In this document: positions 199 to 6,689 of the stretch, piece after piece
Numbering within the stretch: the first letter of the stretch is position 1
Layout of the letters: each line of letters starts with the position of its first letter
Origin: a virus
Lineage: Duplodnaviria > Heunggongvirae > Uroviricota > Caudoviricetes
Length of the DNA: 7,264 nucleotides
IMG/VR virus record: IMGVR_UViG_2565956631_000003
Span: 1 to 7,264 of that record
Reading direction: 5' to 3' (one strand)
Position numbers and translations under genes: made by a program
Notes under the pieces: generated by a model
Told to the model about the DNA's origin: nothing
Seen by the model: only the letters and a program-made list of their open reading frames with translations
Databases searched by the model: none

Positions 199-639
199 TC
201 ATGCTGCCCTGTCTCCCCATCTTGCTTTCCACTCCAGAGCTAGTCGCGCTTCATCTGACCACTTAACTCCACGCTCTGTACCGAATGCCTGTATAAGCTC
301 TAATAGCTCCGCAAATTCGCTTACACACATCCTGCTGGTTGACTTGCCTATTACCACAAAGCCATTCCCGGCAAGGTTAGGAACAACATCCTGCTGCTTT
401 AATGCTGCGGTAAACACACACTTCCAGCTTTCTGCATCCAGCCAGCGACCATGCCATTCAACCTGACGAGAGACGTCACCAAGGCAAGCCCAAAGCTTTC
501 GGTTTTGGTCTAAGCTGCGGTTGCGTTCCTGAATGGTTACTACGATTGGTTTGATTGGGTCTGGAAGGATTTGCTGGATAGCTTGAATGGCGTTCTGCTG
601 ATGAATGGGGCTTCTTAGTTCAAACGTTCGTTTCCTCAT
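199..639 (-). CDS. ninB: NinB recombination protein (lambda NinB/Orf family)
   Basis: 146-aa [59 protein letters not shown]..., matching my recollection of lambda NinB almost along its full length. AGGTGA Shine-Dalgarno before ATG 639..637. Position downstream of the replication genes is as in lambda/P22. Confidence 0.88.
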
Positions 640-874
640 GGCTCACCTTCTGCACGCATGGATTAATTAACGCCAAAATAGCTTCTGGTTTCTCAATAAC
701 ATCGAACCGCTCACCACTTGCCATTCTTACAATCGTAAATCCGGCATCAAATAGGGTTTCGATGTTGTCAGAGTTAACGTACAAGGGCTCATATGCACTT
801 CTGGTGCTTTCTATCACGCCTGTGCTTGGTGGCTGATAGATGCTGCATTGCATGGTTAATTTTATAAATGGCAT
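620..874 (-). CDS. Hypothetical 84-aa protein, unrecognised
   Basis: ORF with ATG at 874..872 preceded by AAGGAG at 9-nt spacing. Its 3' end overlaps the ninB start by 20 nt, and it lies 5 nt downstream of the preceding gene, so it is operon-packed. No family recognised by eye. Confidence 0.6.
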   Translation of the reverse strand: MPFIKLTMQCSIYQPPSTGVIESTRSAYEPLYVNSDNIETLFDAGFTIVRMASGERFDVIEKPEAILALINPCVQKVSHEETNV

Positions 875-878
875 ATAC

Positions 879-1199
879 TCACTCCTTCAATTTGACTCCA
901 GCAGCTCGGATGTTTTCCTCATAAGCATCCATTGCATCACCGAAGCCATTGGAATAATCAACAGTAAACCCTTTGGCTAATGCTTCTCTGCTGTCGATAA
1001 ACTTTGGCGCGGTTATTTCAATAGCTGATCGCGATGCCTGCCACGTTTGCCAGTGGCCTTGAACATCGTCCATCACATATTGACCACCAATATTACCACT
1101 GCCAATTTCATGGTGATTTTCAGGGTAACGGATAAGGTCTGAGGATTCGCCTCCACGTCGCAACCAACTTTCTTCAAACTGCTTTCTTGATTCGTCCAT
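879..1199 (-). CDS. Hypothetical 106-aa protein, unrecognised
   Basis: ORF with ATG at 1199..1197 preceded by GAGGG at about 9 nt. Acidic soluble protein with a Gly-rich segment (HEIGSGNIGGQY). Its start lies 15 nt after the stop (1219-1217) of the upstream membrane-protein gene. Confidence 0.6.
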   Translation of the reverse strand: MDESRKQFEESWLRRGGESSDLIRYPENHHEIGSGNIGGQYVMDDVQGHWQTWQASRSAIEITAPKFIDSREALAKGFTVDYSNGFGDAMDAYEENIRAAGVKLKE

Positions 1200-1216: not shown

Positions 1217-1423
1217 TCAACTCACAAAACGCCACGCCATTTTTGCTACAGCGACAGGCATAACACCGATAATCACCCACAGGAAAATGCTACCGAAAAG
1301 CACACCCACCAGGTCTTTACCTTCGCCTACCAACCGGACAAAACTGCTGGCAACAACAATGAACGTCGCCACCATCCACATAGCACCGAGAATCCTCAAT
1401 GCAGAGAAAATTAACTCAGCCAC
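1217..1423 (-). CDS. Small (68 aa) membrane protein with two predicted transmembrane helices
   Basis: GTG start at 1423..1421 with a GGGGGAGAG Shine-Dalgarno 6 nt upstream. Sequence (M)AELIFSALRILGAMWMVATFIVVASSFVRLVGEGKDLVGVLFGSIFLWVIIGVMPVAVAKMAWRFVS shows two hydrophobic stretches of about 20 aa separated by a short charged loop. Confidence 0.55.
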   Translation of the reverse strand: MAELIFSALRILGAMWMVATFIVVASSFVRLVGEGKDLVGVLFGSIFLWVIIGVMPVAVAKMAWRFVS

Positions 1424-1438
1424 GATTTACTCTCCCCC

Positions 1439-1470
1439 AAATAAAAAGGCCCGCGATTACCAGCAGGCCT
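1439..1470 (-). terminator. Intrinsic terminator after the helicase gene (tR2-like position)
   Basis: Minus-strand RNA GGCCUGC-UGGUAAUC-GCGGGCC forms a 7-bp GC-rich stem (one G-U pair) with an 8-nt loop, followed by UUUUUAUUU. Located between the helicase stop and the next gene. Confidence 0.55.
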
Positions 1471-1498
1471 GTTACAAGCTCAGTGATGTAGATGGTCA

Positions 1499-2935
1499 TC
1501 AGAATCCTCCTTTCTTCTTGGACTGCGGTTCCTCGCGTTCACGGCGGCGCATTTCAGCAGACTGTTGGTCTGTGTCATAAATAGCGCCATTTGCCTGTAT
1601 GCAATACACCGTGCCGGTATTGCCATGGCGATTGAGGCGAAGGATTAGTTCGGTTTCACCAGGAGGAACGCTGTCATCAAAAGCACCTTCACGATGGATC
1701 CCCACCCAATAATCGCAATCCTGTTCAATCTGCCCTGTATCTCGTGAGTCACTTGGTAATGGGCGTTTATTGGTTCGGCTTTCCAGTGCGCGGTTAAGCT
1801 GTGTCAGAAGCACAACAACACAATCAAGCTCTTTGGCAAGGTTCTTCAGTCCTTTGGTGATCATGCCGTAAGCAAGGTCGTTGCGATCGGCCTTCTCAGC
1901 GGTCATTAGTGTCAGGTAATCGACCAGAATCATGCCAACACATCCTTTTTCTCGCTTGATTCGACGACTTTCGCTGACGATTTGAGCCAGAGATAATCCC
2001 GGCGTGTCGTCGATGTAAAGCAGGTCGATTTCACTCAAGCGATTGGCTGTTTCGATCGCCCTGTTGAAGTCACCATCGTAATCACCCTGATAGCCGTCAT
2101 CGGCGTCATTTGTCGCCGGAAGGTAAAATATATTCGGGTTAACACCAGACTTCTGCCCTACCAGTTTTTCCAGTATCTGGTCACCTGGCATTTCAAGGCT
2201 GAACATCAGAGCTGGCTTTTTCTCATGCACTGCGCAGTTGATTGCCATCTGGCTGTATAGCGTCGTTTTCCCCATCTTAGGGCGAGCGCCAATGACAAAC
2301 AGAGAGCCTTTAACCAGACCTTTCGGTGACAGCATCCTGTCCAGCGATGGGATCCCTGTGCTCATTCCTCGTTGTTCGCCTGACGGGTCAAATCGCTTCT
2401 CAAGGTCGCTAACCCAGTCTTCCATGACCTCACCAAATGAGCGAAGGCCGCGACGCGATCCGGTTTTTGCATGGTCTGTCAGTTGCGTGAAAATCGCCTG
2501 AATAGCTTCGTACTTCTGCGTTGCAGTCATTCCGTTGCGGGAATAGAGCAATTCCGTCGCTTCAGTCATGCGGTTGATGGCGTAGCGTTCCATTGCGGTT
2601 TCACGAACCTGCATTGCATAGGCAACGATGTTTGCTGCGCTTGGCGTGTTCTTTGCGATCTCAGCGATATAAGCAAAACCGCCAACAGACGCCGTTAACG
2701 ATTTACGCTCCAGTTCATCGAAAAGCGTCAGGCCATCTACTGGCTTTTGCTCACGGTGCATTCTGGTTATTTCTTCGAAAAGGATTTTGTGTGGTCGACT
2801 GTAAAATGAATCAGGCTTCAGCATCGCCAGGACTTTCTGGACGCGCTCACTGCTGTCATCATCCAGAAGCAATCCACCAATCACCGCCTGCTCTGCCTCG
2901 ATGCTATGGGGCGGCGCATAAAAATTATCGGTCAT
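1499..2935 (-). CDS. Replicative DNA helicase, DnaB family (P22 gene 12-like)
   Basis: DnaB-like N-terminal region (SIEAEQAVIGGLLLD), Walker A GARPKMGKTT, and a RecA-like C-terminal core. Start taken as ATG 2935..2933 (MTDNFYAPP...) with GAGGG 9 nt upstream; the ORF track's 2950 start is an upstream in-frame GTG. The start overlaps the stop of the upstream initiator gene (ATGACCGATAA). Confidence 0.9.
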   Translation of the reverse strand: MTDNFYAPPHSIEAEQAVIGGLLLDDDSSERVQKVLAMLKPDSFYSRPHKILFEEITRMHREQKPVDGLTLFDELERKSLTASVGGFAYIAEIAKNTPSAANIVAYAMQVRETAMERYAINRMTEATELLYSRNGMTATQKYEAIQAIFTQLTDHAKTGSRRGLRSFGEVMEDWVSDLEKRFDPSGEQRGMSTGIPSLDRMLSPKGLVKGSLFVIGARPKMGKTTLYSQMAINCAVHEKKPALMFSLEMPGDQILEKLVGQKSGVNPNIFYLPATNDADDGYQGDYDGDFNRAIETANRLSEIDLLYIDDTPGLSLAQIVSESRRIKREKGCVGMILVDYLTLMTAEKADRNDLAYGMITKGLKNLAKELDCVVVLLTQLNRALESRTNKRPLPSDSRDTGQIEQDCDYWVGIHREGAFDDSVPPGETELILRLNRHGNTGTVYCIQANGAIYDTDQQSAEMRRREREEPQSKKKGGF

Positions 2936-3824
2936 CGTGTTCACCCTCACGAACTTTCAGGTAGGTATTATCGTTAAGCAGGAAATCAAATCCCTTTTTG
3001 TGCCAGACGGTTCCGCGTTGATGGTTTAGGCGCTCTTCGAACATCCATCGGCAATTTTCGCCTACGTAGCTCAAATAATTTCTCCAGTCCTGCATCGTGA
3101 ACCCATGCCCGTCAAGCTGGCGTGTTATCACTCCGGCTTTTCGCCAGAACGTTCGGATCTGGTTTTTACGCTTGTCATTCAGTGCGCGGATTTTTGGCGC
3201 TTCAGGAAGGATTTCGTGGTAAGCATCGACAACATCCTGACAGCTAACGGAAGGTTTTTTCTTGTCAGACTTTTTGTCTGCTGCGGTACTCTCTAATACG
3301 TCAGTATTAGAGATAATATTATTATATTCTTTATCTGTGGTAATTTGCTGGTAATCTGCTGGTACAGTATTGCTTGCAGGCATTGGTATTGCTGGCTTTG
3401 AGGTGGTAATTTGCTGGTAATCTGCTGGTACAAAATTTGACTGATAATCGTCATATTTCTCTACCGAGAAAACTGAGAATTTACCGTGTGAAACCCAGTC
3501 AATCATGCCGAGCTTTTTGAACTTTCTAAGCAGGTACTGAACGCGATCTGGTTTGAGTCCTGTTTCAAACGCCAGAGAGTTTCTACCGCCAAGTAGCTTC
3601 CCTCTGCCTACCAGAATTTCTCCTGCGTCAGTCATTACATACTCAGGCGTATGCTTTGCTTTGAGGATTAAGTGAACCCACAGATGCGCAGCTTCTGCGT
3701 CCTTGTAAAACGGCACATCCATAATTTTACGGTGCAGCAAGGCATACCCCTTACCGCTGCTTTGATGCGGTTGTTGTAGCCTTCTGGCCTCTCTGGCTTC
3801 GGCTAGATTAGATATGTTACTCAT
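2925..3824 (-). CDS. Phage replication initiator (lambda O / P22 gp18 functional analogue) containing the origin
   Basis: 299-aa ORF immediately upstream of, and coupled to, the helicase. N-terminal region looks like a winged-helix DNA-binding domain. A central duplicated peptide [10 protein letters not shown] is encoded by the iteron DNA. Family assignment is by position and architecture, not a confirmed match. Confidence 0.75.
3305..3431. repeat. Replication origin-like iteron array with flanking AT-rich tract, inside the initiator gene
   Basis: Two perfect 30-bp copies of GTGGTAATTTGCTGGTAATCTGCTGGTACA at 3336-3365 and 3402-3431. Each holds two sub-iterons of about 11 bp (GGTAAT[T/C]TGCTGG), with degenerate copies between (GGTATTGCTGG at 3384-3394). 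Adjacent AT-rich stretch at 3305-3335 (ATTAGAGATAATATTATTATATTCTTTATC) lies downstream in the gene's direction, as in lambda ori. Confidence 0.65.
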
Positions 3825-3963
3825 GACCTTTCTCCTTCTGCATCAGCTTCACTTTTTCCAACTCAGCCCGGAATCGACCAGGCTGCTTGAAGCTGGACAG
3901 GAAGCGATCACGTAGTATGTGTTTGTGAATTTTGTCCTGGTAAGGACTGAGTTGTTTTGTCAT
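3817..3963 (-). CDS. Small 48-aa basic ORF between cII and the initiator gene
   Basis: ATG at 3963..3961 preceded by GGAG at 5 nt. Translation [48 protein letters not shown]. Its TAA stop overlaps the initiator start (ATGAGTAA), suggesting translational coupling. Absent from the ORF track, presumably because it is short. Confidence 0.35.
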
Positions 3964-4350: not shown

Positions 4351-4390
4351 TGATGTTTGCTCACCCGGTTAGAGGTGAAAGGCCAGAACT
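4351..4390 (-). promoter_or_regulatory. nutR (boxA + boxB) N-utilisation site
   Basis: Minus-strand boxA GCTCTTTAACA (4390..4380). boxB hairpin UCACCU[CUAACC]GGGUGA (4368..4351) has the same 6-nt loop as the nutL boxB. Located between cro and cII, as in lambda. Confidence 0.6.
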
Positions 4391-4407
4391 GTTAAAGAGC
4401 AATTTGC

Positions 4408-4673: not shown

Positions 4674-5324
4674 ATGAATACACAACTGATGGGTGAGCGT
4701 ATTCGCGCTCGCAGAAAAGAACTCAAGATTAGGCAGGCTGCCCTTGGAAAGATGGTTGGCGTGTCTAATGTTGCTATTTCCCAATGGGAGCGATCTGAAA
4801 CTGAGCCCAATGGCGAAAACCTATTGGCCTTAGCCAAGGCTTTGCAGTGCTCCCCTGATTACCTGTTGAAAGGAGAGGATAGTCTTTCAAACATTGCCTA
4901 TCACAGCAGGCATGATCCAAGAGGTTCGTATCCTCTAATTAGTTGGGTAAGCGCAGGATGTTGGATGGAAGCTGTAGAGCCATATCATAGGCGTGCAATA
5001 GATAACTGGTACGACACAACGGTAGATTGTTCTGAAGACTCTTTTTGGCTCGACGTTAAAGGCGATTCAATGACTGCCCCGGCAGGACTGAGTATTCCTG
5101 AGGGGATGATTATTCTCGTCGACCCAGAAGTCGAACCACGTAATGGAAAGCTGGTAGTCGCCAAACTTGAAGGAGAAAACGAGGCGACATTCAAAAAGTT
5201 AGTTATTGATGCCGGTAGAAAATTCCTGAAACCACTCAATCCACAATACCCAATGATTGAAATCAATGGGAACTGTAAAATCATTGGCGTTGTCGTTGAT
5301 GCCAAGCTAGCAAACCTTCCTTAA
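4674..5324 (+). CDS. c2: Prophage repressor, P22 c2-type (HTH plus S24 LexA-like autopeptidase domain)
   Basis: 216-aa ORF MNTQLMGERIRARRKELKIRQAALGKMVGVSNVAISQWERSE... with an N-terminal helix-turn-helix, an Ala-Gly cleavage site (VSAG-CW), a catalytic Ser in GDSM and a downstream Lys. Near-full-length match to my recollection of the P22 c2 repressor. Confidence 0.92.
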   Translation: MNTQLMGERIRARRKELKIRQAALGKMVGVSNVAISQWERSETEPNGENLLALAKALQCSPDYLLKGEDSLSNIAYHSRHDPRGSYPLISWVSAGCWMEAVEPYHRRAIDNWYDTTVDCSEDSFWLDVKGDSMTAPAGLSIPEGMIILVDPEVEPRNGKLVVAKLEGENEATFKKLVIDAGRKFLKPLNPQYPMIEINGNCKIIGVVVDAKLANLP

Positions 5325-5528: not shown

Positions 5529-5638
5529 CCAGAACTTGAGTGGTTTTGGGGATGGCGCGAATTGCAGCTGCAAGACAGCGATCGAGAAGATAAGCACCTC
5601 GACGCGTCATGCGCCAAAGCCACTTAAAGGAGACCATC

Positions 5639-5944
5639 ATGGTAACCATTGTCTGGAAAGAATCCAAAGGTACGGCAAAAAGCCGCTACAAAGCTCGCAG
5701 AGCAGAACTTATTGCCGAGCGACGCAGTAATGAAGCACTGGCGCGAAAAATTGCTCTAAAGCTCTCTGGTTGCGTCAGAGCAGACAAAGCAGCATCACTC
5801 GGAAGCATTTGCTGCAAGAAGAAAGAAGAAGTCGTTCGAAAAAATAGAAGTATTTATTACAAGGATTCAAACCCATTAGGAAACAAAATACATGCAGTCC
5901 AAAAAATAAAATTGTACAGTAAACTACCGTACGGTGCTTATTGA
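5639..5944 (+). CDS. N: N-type transcription antiterminator (phi21-like arginine-rich motif)
   Basis: AAGGAG at 5627-5632, 6 nt before ATG 5639. N-terminal MVTIVWKESKGTAKSRYKARRAELIAERR is the arginine-rich boxB-binding motif I recall for phage 21 N. First gene after nutL. The in-frame ATG at 5609 lacks a Shine-Dalgarno. The 3' third of the gene is markedly AT-rich. Confidence 0.8.
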   Translation: MVTIVWKESKGTAKSRYKARRAELIAERRSNEALARKIALKLSGCVRADKAASLGSICCKKKEEVVRKNRSIYYKDSNPLGNKIHAVQKIKLYSKLPYGAY

Positions 5945-5946
5945 GT

Positions 5947-6285
5947 ATGCTTATGGTGAAAAAGACTATTTATGTTAATCCTGACCGCGGACAAAACAGA
6001 AAAGTATCTGATAGAGGTCTTACATCTCGAGACAGGAGGAGAATAGCGAGATGGGAAAAGAGGATAGCATATGCATTAAAAAACGGTGTAACACCTGGAT
6101 TTAATGCTATAGATGACGGTCCTGAATATAAGATTAATGAAGACCCAATGGATAAAGTTGACAAAGCATTAGCAACACCATTTCCTCGCGATGTCGAAAA
6201 AATTGAAGATGAAAAATATGAGGATGTAATGCACAGAGTTGTTAATCACGCTCACCAACGAAATCCAAATAAAAAATGGTCATAG
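5947..6285 (+). CDS. Hypothetical 113-aa protein in an AT-rich segment immediately after N
   Basis: ORF begins at the N stop (TTG 5941, ATG 5947 or 5953; no clear Shine-Dalgarno, so the start is uncertain). Arg-rich N-terminal half (RGQNRKVSDRGLTSRDRRRIARWEKR) and acidic C-terminal half (EDPMDKVDK...EKIEDEKYED). AT-rich codon usage unlike the flanking genes. No family recognised. Confidence 0.5.
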   Translation: MLMVKKTIYVNPDRGQNRKVSDRGLTSRDRRRIARWEKRIAYALKNGVTPGFNAIDDGPEYKINEDPMDKVDKALATPFPRDVEKIEDEKYEDVMHRVVNHAHQRNPNKKWS

Positions 6286-6418: not shown

Positions 6419-6505
6419 ATGGAAGAAGAATTTGAAGAGTTCGAAGAGCATCCTCAGGATGTGATGGAACAATACCAGGACTATCCGTATGACTACGACT
6501 ATTGA
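6419..6505 (+). CDS. 28-aa highly acidic, aromatic-rich micro-ORF overlapping the ral start
   Basis: GAGGTGA Shine-Dalgarno 6 nt before ATG 6419. Translation MEEEFEEFEEHPQDVMEQYQDYPYDYDY. The TGA at 6503-6505 overlaps the ral ATG (6489) by 17 nt. Confidence 0.4.
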   Translation: MEEEFEEFEEHPQDVMEQYQDYPYDYDY

Positions 6506-6689
6506 TAAAAATCAATGGTGTGGACAATTCAAGCGATGCAATGGATGCAAGCTGCAATCGGAATGCATGGTTAAGCCTGAAGAAATGTTTCCTGTAATGG
6601 AAGATGGGAAATATGTCGATAAATGGGCAATACGAACGACGGCAATGATTGCCAGAGAACTTGGTAAACAGAACAACAAGGCTGCCTGA
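6489..6689 (+). CDS. ral: Ral antirestriction protein (lambda Ral-like, 66 aa)
   Basis: MTTTIDKNQWCGQFKRCNGCKLQSECMVKPEEMFPVMEDGKYVDKWAIRTTAMIARELGKQNNKAA matches my recollection of lambda Ral. Four Cys (C-x5-C-x2-C-x5-C). Early-left operon position downstream of N. Confidence 0.7.
   Translation: MTTTIDKNQWCGQFKRCNGCKLQSECMVKPEEMFPVMEDGKYVDKWAIRTTAMIARELGKQNNKAA

Follow-up and report, generated by a model that had tools for sequence, protein, structure and literature searches.

The window, by which is meant the whole 7,264-nt (7.3-kb) stretch of DNA analysed here, comes from a lambdoid phage, of which it covers the immunity, replication and nin segment. Its rightward early (pR-type) operon lies on the minus strand, and the small gene under study, orf68, was found in this operon directly after the replication genes. 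The features of the window that bear on orf68 are the following:

5941-6285, plus strand: gene for a Nun-like termination factor, directly after the N-like gene (phrog_5632, E=5e-71)
5609..5944, plus strand: gene for an N-like antitermination protein, in the leftward operon (phrog_271 'anti-termination protein N-like', E=1.7e-31)
4674-5324, plus strand: cI
4593-4408, minus strand: cro
4361..4401, minus strand: nutR-like site 3′ of cro, with a boxA-like TGCTCTTTAACA at 4401..4390 and a boxB-like hairpin at 4378..4361
4292-3996, minus strand: cII
3824-2925, minus strand: gene for an O-like initiator
1499..2950, minus strand: gene for a DnaB-type replicative helicase (the 'P' of HK022 and HK620), with Pfam DnaB and DnaB_C matches and the annotation of HK022, HK620 and mEp235
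1416..1499, minus strand: ninA, 27 codons (MTIYITELVTGLLVIAGLFIWGRVNRG), one hydrophobic helix (phrog_5907, E=1.1e-18)
1439..1470, minus strand: intrinsic terminator tR2, hairpin at 1470..1447 and T-tract to 1439
1430..1438, minus strand: Shine-Dalgarno (SD) sequence GGGGGAGAG of orf68, with a GGAG core that ends 8 nt before the GTG
1217..1423, minus strand: orf68, GTG start at 1423, 68 codons and a TGA stop; two-helix membrane protein of PHROG 1165
879..1199, minus strand: nin-region gene of 106 aa, 17 nt 3′ of orf68 (PHROG 343, function not assigned)
620-874, minus strand: nin-region ORF of 84 aa (PHROG 8458, 'flagellar protein')

The hairpin of the nutR-like site is visible in the centroid fold, and it resembles the boxB of phage 21. 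The pair of N-like and Nun-like genes is also annotated in phages mEp235 and mEpX1, both of which name the former N; in the window, the pair is followed by a ral-like gene at 6489-6689. The helicase gene is the upstream neighbour of a compact module consisting of ninA, tR2, and orf68, and the gene order 3′ of the helicase continues from orf68 through the 106-aa and 84-aa ORFs to NinB. The 106-aa gene is one among several alternative downstream neighbours of orf68 in related loci.

Two labels in this segment deserve caution. The 84-aa ORF scored 23.9 bits against Pfam FlbD, just under the 24.7-bit cut-off, and a flagellar label is odd for a phage early gene. A 48-aa ORF at 3817-3963 (minus strand, PHROG 1913) follows cII and overlaps the start of the O-like gene, a position at which the PHROG label 'tail protein' is implausible.

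The tR2 terminator within ninA

The terminator adjoining orf68 consists of a hairpin, whose 8-bp G+C-rich stem (AGGCCTGC/GCGGGCCT) encloses a loop of 8 nt, and a tract reading TTTTTATTT; the first T of this tract pairs within the stem, and the T run ends at 1439. Its predicted fold (-15 kcal/mol, z = -2.8) was equalled by none of 200 shuffled sequences, and the hairpin ranked as the top terminator in a scan of the window. The tR2 element of lambda, AGGCCUGC-UGGUAAUC-GCAGGCCU followed by UUUUUAUUU, was recovered in full except for a single A-to-G change in the right arm, which converts a U-A pair to a U.G pair and is synonymous in ninA. Because the same element is present in lambda (NC_001416) bar this one wobble-preserving change, the terminator is identified by sequence as lambda tR2 itself, an internal terminator of the pR operon. 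It has the expected position, with the replication genes on one side and the nin genes on the other; HK620 annotates it as tR2, and mEp235 as a terminator. Changes in the stem among related loci preserve wobble pairing (C to T in locus L048, A to G in the window), and the others fall in the loop.

The terminator is not intergenic. The ninA ORF spans the entire tR2 hairpin and the U-tract. The ATG of ninA shares one base, the A, with the TGA of the helicase gene (TGATG, a 1-nt overlap), and its TGA falls 8 nt inside orf68 (GTGGCTGA). The same ORF was found in 84 loci, with variants amounting to 10 synonymous and 7 conservative states, and each of six unrelated upstream genes supplies a GGAG-type SD sequence 6-10 nt before the ninA ATG. 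NinA is annotated in HK620 and HK630, and HK620 marks tR2 within ninA. A preliminary description of this DNA had proposed a tR2-like terminator that ends the replication operon, with the 68-aa ORF just downstream. The strong intrinsic terminator and its adjacency to orf68 were upheld; however, the terminator lies inside the pR operon rather than at its end, and inside ninA (1499..1416), an ORF which that description had missed together with the probable translational coupling through tR2.

The tR2/ninA arrangement is already known, both from the annotations of HK620 and HK630 and from experiments in lambda. The maximal termination efficiency of lambda tR2, measured in vivo in a reporter system and without N, was about 0.9 (Li et al., NAR 2016, PMC4824070). 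With an upstream stop codon less than about 27 nt away, ribosomes repressed termination, and the natural NinA start, 30 nt upstream of tR2, was active, was judged "is not weak", and lowered termination only by about 10% (PMC4824070). The helicase stop in the window lies 28 nt from the tR2 hairpin, just past the 27-nt interference distance of PMC4824070, so by this rule full termination at tR2 would be expected.

Two related loci carry rearrangements in this element. An HNH/AP2-type endonuclease gene, HK022_57 (203 aa), is inserted within ninA of HK022, just before the hairpin (locus L004, 1702-2443), and the tR2 hairpin, the SD sequence and orf68 are kept despite the insertion. The truncated ninA of this phage (HK022_56) retains the first 9 residues, which are followed by a different hydrophobic segment and a basic tail. 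In locus L067, about 100 nt before orf68, half of the tR2 hairpin (GGCCTGCTGGTAATCGCA) is duplicated in tandem and in frame; ninA thereby gains 21 nt, or seven codons, and alternative hairpins arise.

The orf68 gene, its alleles and its product

The 68-aa, GTG-initiated ORF with a strong SD sequence that the preliminary description had reported was confirmed at 1423..1217 on the minus strand, with the GGAG core 8 nt before the GTG. The protein matched the phrog_1165 HMM with E=3.5e-37, residues 1-68 aligning to profile positions 1-68 of 68. A GTG start followed by exactly 68 codons was present in all 87 related loci, among which there were no frameshifts or premature stops, and the SD sequence was kept as GGGGGAG[A/G]G in 86 of the 87. 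A homologue search returned 205 clusters, almost all of 68 aa; every one came from prophages of Escherichia, Shigella or Salmonella, under the label "hypothetical" or "membrane protein", and among the matches listed, 112 of 120 homologues were 68 aa long. The gene is already catalogued, as a PHROG member and as a protein identical to ADO67670.1 of phage HK75, and its exact sequence was found on 291 contigs.

A 52-aa version starting at an internal ATG is annotated in mEp235, HK630, and HK75. At the corresponding position, Met15, 26 of 112 listed homologues have Leu or Ser instead, and residues 2-14 are conserved. Because Met15 varies while the residues before it are conserved, the 52-aa start is judged to be wrong. 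In the Salmonella phage SPN9CC allele, an ATG occupies the GTG position and the 8-nt overlap with ninA is the same (ATGGTTAA). A NinA-Orf68 fusion by frameshifting was also considered, and was ruled out by an in-frame TAA 6 nt upstream of the GTG and by the lack of a slippery site.

Three allele lineages share the same length and hydrophobic pattern: the main E. coli type, the HK620 type, and the ATG-initiated Salmonella SPN9CC_0027. The HK620 allele (locus L001, 1778-1984) is an unannotated 68-aa GTG ORF of 57% protein identity, located between ninA and ninB. Compared with it, orf68 gave a dS of 1.13 and a dN of 0.36 (dN/dS about 0.32), and pooled pN/pS over 42 unique orf68 sequences was 0.41 in frame, whereas the two shifted frames gave 0.55 and 0.96. 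These values suggest that the constraint on orf68 is only moderate (dN/dS 0.3-0.4), not strong. The last ~60 nt of the gene are 94-100% identical in DNA among E. coli alleles, a pattern that indicates a recombination joint (mosaic) inside orf68 and accounts for part of the conservation of the C-terminus.

An exhaustive phmmer search against 1.8 billion representatives gave 17 matches, all but one of them small phage-type proteins, including a handful of distant relatives of 63-68 aa with 30-40% identity. The exception, P0131, is a repetitive, artefact-like sequence of 375 aa. Metagenome-assembled genomes labelled Cellvibrionaceae, Bacillota and Collinsella (loci L086, L088, and L089) carry near-identical orf68 copies; as evidence of host range these labels were rejected, since they most likely reflect contamination by enterobacterial prophages during binning. 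Because the homologues, the 87 intact loci, the conservation of the start, the divergent alleles and the distant relatives all agree, orf68 is judged to be a genuine gene and not a chance ORF.

Of 5426 complete E. coli genomes, 538 (~10%) carry the entire ninA-tR2-orf68 block, with up to four copies per genome; the block was also found in 97 phage records, including 48 of Stx2a-converting phages; the ninA-tR2 element alone was found in 110 records. In E. coli and Salmonella, orf68 is always accompanied by tR2. The block has at least six unrelated types of upstream gene (DnaB-type helicase, ren, and others) and at least five types of downstream gene, and thus behaves as an independent mosaic cassette. 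The gene encodes a conserved membrane protein that some 10% of complete E. coli genomes and most of the sequenced Stx2a-converting phages of the collection carry. Several database records give it the wrong 52-aa start or, as for HK620, omit it.

The two hydrophobic helices of the preliminary description were borne out. Kyte-Doolittle hydropathy in a 19-residue window peaked at 2.15 (residues 11-29) and 2.49 (residues 41-59), both well over the usual transmembrane threshold of 1.6, and an AlphaFold2 model built on a 13-sequence alignment (mean pLDDT 92) showed two helices, residues 2-33 and 38-67, that form a hairpin. Relatives at 30-40% identity keep W16, G35, D37, W49, G53, P56, K61, and W64, and also K/R10; the second helix and tail thus carry the motif W-x3-G-x2-P-x4-K-x2-W. 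The C-terminal tail, KMAWRFVS, has eight residues, two of them basic. Orf68 is predicted to be a helical hairpin of the inner membrane with a short G-x-D loop outside. Both termini are probably cytoplasmic, because basic residues are found at positions 10, 61, and 65 and the loop, G-E-G-K-D, contains both acidic and basic residues, a topology read from a weak positive-inside bias. The reading of helix 1 as a cleaved signal peptide was discarded, as the VAS-S motif is not conserved in other alleles.

Expression and possible roles

A consensus scan of the minus strand over the 500 nt upstream of orf68 returned no sigma-70-like promoter, even at 8 of 12 matches, the scan being a crude one that may miss weak or non-sigma-70 promoters. 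The G+C content of orf68 (0.49) is like that of the neighbouring genes. In the distant relatives, the gene belongs to a compact early operon of nin type, where it follows replication genes, overlaps its neighbours by 4 nt, and has no terminator in front. Because orf68 has no promoter-like site of its own, has neighbour-like G+C, and has distant relatives embedded in early operons, it does not resemble a lysogen-expressed moron.

Read-through of tR2 by N-modified polymerase belongs to classical lambda genetics. Since a tR2 of the lambda type is ~90% efficient, no promoter-like site was found, and both an N-like gene and a nutR-like site are present, dependence on antitermination is the best reading of the locus. 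The preliminary description had left the choice between N antitermination and an unrecognised promoter; tR2, the N-like gene and the nutR-like site speak for the former, whereas the 500 nt searched hold no candidate for the latter. The gene would be transcribed from pR as a delayed-early gene, by polymerase that has to pass tR2 within ninA. Read-through by N-modified polymerase would provide the main expression, with roughly 10% basal read-through otherwise, so that one would expect no orf68 expression in the lysogen, a little from unmodified pR transcripts, and full expression after N-modified read-through. For the phage of the window itself, we infer N-dependence from these elements. Most likely, orf68 is a delayed-early, antitermination-dependent lytic gene and not a moron expressed in the lysogen.

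Translation of orf68 would rely on the strong SD sequence directly 3′ of the tR2 U-tract, and termination-reinitiation coupling from ninA to orf68 probably helps. The overlaps of helicase with ninA and of ninA with orf68, combined with the strong SD sequence, suggest translational coupling along the series helicase-ninA-orf68. The nin region has long been known as a "chain of interlinked genes" (an expression cited in a passage of PMC8022706), and coupling of orf68 would fit this description. The locus would thus offer a clean natural case in which transcription and translation both cross a terminator embedded in a translated mini-ORF.

Searches for a function returned little beyond the family itself. 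Pfam, NCBIfam and PADLOC scans covered orf68, ninA and the two ORFs downstream; neither orf68 nor ninA had a match, and extending the scan to 13 members of the family and relaxing the limit to E<=10 did not change this. For orf68, PADLOC gave no match at E<=0.1, phrog_1165 was the sole PHROG match at E<=0.01, and a profile search of PDB sequences gave no match. Foldseek comparison of the AlphaFold2 model with BFVD and PDB retrieved only generic helical hairpins (best E=0.7). The Rfam search of the entire window at E<=1 returned only a spurious snoRNA match, elsewhere than the orf68 region. A full-text literature search found no paper on the orf68 protein.

The size of Orf68, its two hydrophobic helices, its dispensability as judged from position and from the gene's absence in lambda, and its spread through prophages (538 of 5426 complete E. 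coli genomes) would all agree with a superinfection-exclusion, abortive-infection or toxin-like factor that acts at the inner membrane, either protecting the lysogen or killing the infected cell. In favour of this idea, DNA entry is blocked by small membrane proteins such as HK97 gp15 and T4 Imm, the latter an early product of lytic infection. However, no match was obtained with PADLOC, Pfam or NCBIfam, and the architecture of a moron is missing, as there is neither a promoter-like site of its own nor an atypical G+C content. Because orf68 lies behind a roughly 90%-efficient terminator in a repressed pR operon, it is expected to be silent in lysogens, and this expectation from its position behind tR2 argues against a protective role there. 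For a type I toxin, which pairs a single-TM peptide of less than 60 aa with an antisense RNA, the product is too long (68 aa) and has two helices; moreover, there is no Rfam match, and neither a promoter nor a terminator was found on the plus (antisense) strand across 1217-1470. The expression architecture speaks against exclusion that protects the lysogen, against abortive infection, and against a toxin role, and we regard a factor of this kind as unlikely. A holin- or antiholin-like factor of lysis timing, resembling class II holins such as S68 of phage 21, is extremely doubtful. Orf68 has the size and the two TM helices of that class (68 residues), and one weak structural match to a mycobacteriophage holin (E=6.7) appeared amid many generic hairpins. 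Against these points, the gene lies in the nin region right after the replication genes and not in a lysis cassette, is expected to be expressed from pR rather than from a late promoter, has no holin PHROG or Pfam match, and encodes a tail of eight residues, two of them basic, versus the typical long charged tail of holins.

The moderate constraint (pN/pS about 0.4) raises the further question of whether orf68 is a hitch-hiking ORF that has no function of its own and is kept by linkage to tR2 and the SD sequence or for another purpose of the DNA. The constant presence of tR2 beside it in E. coli and Salmonella would be explained in this way, and lambda does without the gene with no obvious harm. 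Nevertheless, the 87 loci contain no frameshift or premature stop, alleles at dS>1 keep the length, the start position and the hydrophobic pattern, and the shifted-frame controls are less constrained than the gene itself. Relatives at 30-40% identity keep the eight key residues in unrelated contexts that have no tR2. Passive retention of orf68 is therefore very unlikely.

The preferred reading is that orf68 is a genuine, non-essential membrane hairpin gene of the nin region, expressed as a delayed-early gene from pR during lytic growth, and not an exclusion gene expressed by the prophage; we give this reading as a whole a probability of about 0.7. As for any biochemical role, we infer that Orf68, made during lytic growth, would use its conserved second helix and C-terminal tail (W49, G53, P56, K61, and W64) to bind a membrane partner or to self-associate within the membrane. 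A role in the lytic phase, for example in blocking superinfecting DNA or in modulating a host membrane protein, is possible. It is a speculative and rather improbable extension that NinA, with 27 aa and a single TM helix, and Orf68, with two such helices, whose reading frames interlock across tR2, form a lytic membrane module that is switched on by read-through of tR2. If this were true, the module might block the entry of superinfecting DNA or modulate a host inner-membrane protein, which would matter for the large number of Stx2a-converting phages with the block. A phenotype of orf68 would add a function to the poorly understood nin region.

Comparison with known systems

Class II holins, such as S68 of phage 21, are proteins of about 68 residues with two transmembrane helices. 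Orf68 differs from them in its genomic location, in having no match to a holin HMM, and in its short, weakly charged C-terminus. The products of rexB and sieB of lambda, of sieA of P22, and of gene 15 of HK97 (gp15) are membrane proteins of temperate enterobacterial phages that mediate exclusion and are expressed in the lysogen; their genes have their own promoters or occupy immunity-region or moron positions. Unlike these genes, orf68 is placed after tR2 in a pR operon under repression, and neither a promoter-like site nor a PADLOC match was found for it. Imm of T4, which confers superinfection immunity, is likewise small, located in the inner membrane and produced early in the lytic cycle. 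No sequence or profile relationship of Orf68 to it was detected, phrog_1165 being the only profile matched at E<=0.01.

The closest counterparts of orf68 are the members of PHROG 1165, namely ADO67670.1 of HK75, gp58 of HK022 (AUM59826.1), orf70 of Stx2-converting phage 86, mEp235_046, HK630_052, and SPN9CC_0027. They share the family and the position after ninA/tR2 and show no material difference from orf68; the copies in E. coli phages have 92-100% DNA identity to the orf68 of the window.

The lambda ren-ninA/tR2-ninB junction (NC_001416, 40568-40650) has the same ninA ORF, hairpin, U-tract and GGGGGAGAG SD sequence, bar one A-to-G change. The upstream gene is ren in lambda, whereas it is the DnaB-type helicase gene in the window. 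The lambda order is ren-ATGA-ninA (containing AGGCCTGCTGGTAATCGCAGGCCTTTTTATTTGGGGGAGAG)-ATGA-ninB, in which neighbouring starts and stops overlap, as they do in the window. Lambda lacks orf68; the stop of its ninA directly overlaps the start of ninB, and GGGGGAGAG serves ninB there. Relative to lambda, orf68 is an additional cassette that separates the tR2/SD element from the nin gene that comes next.
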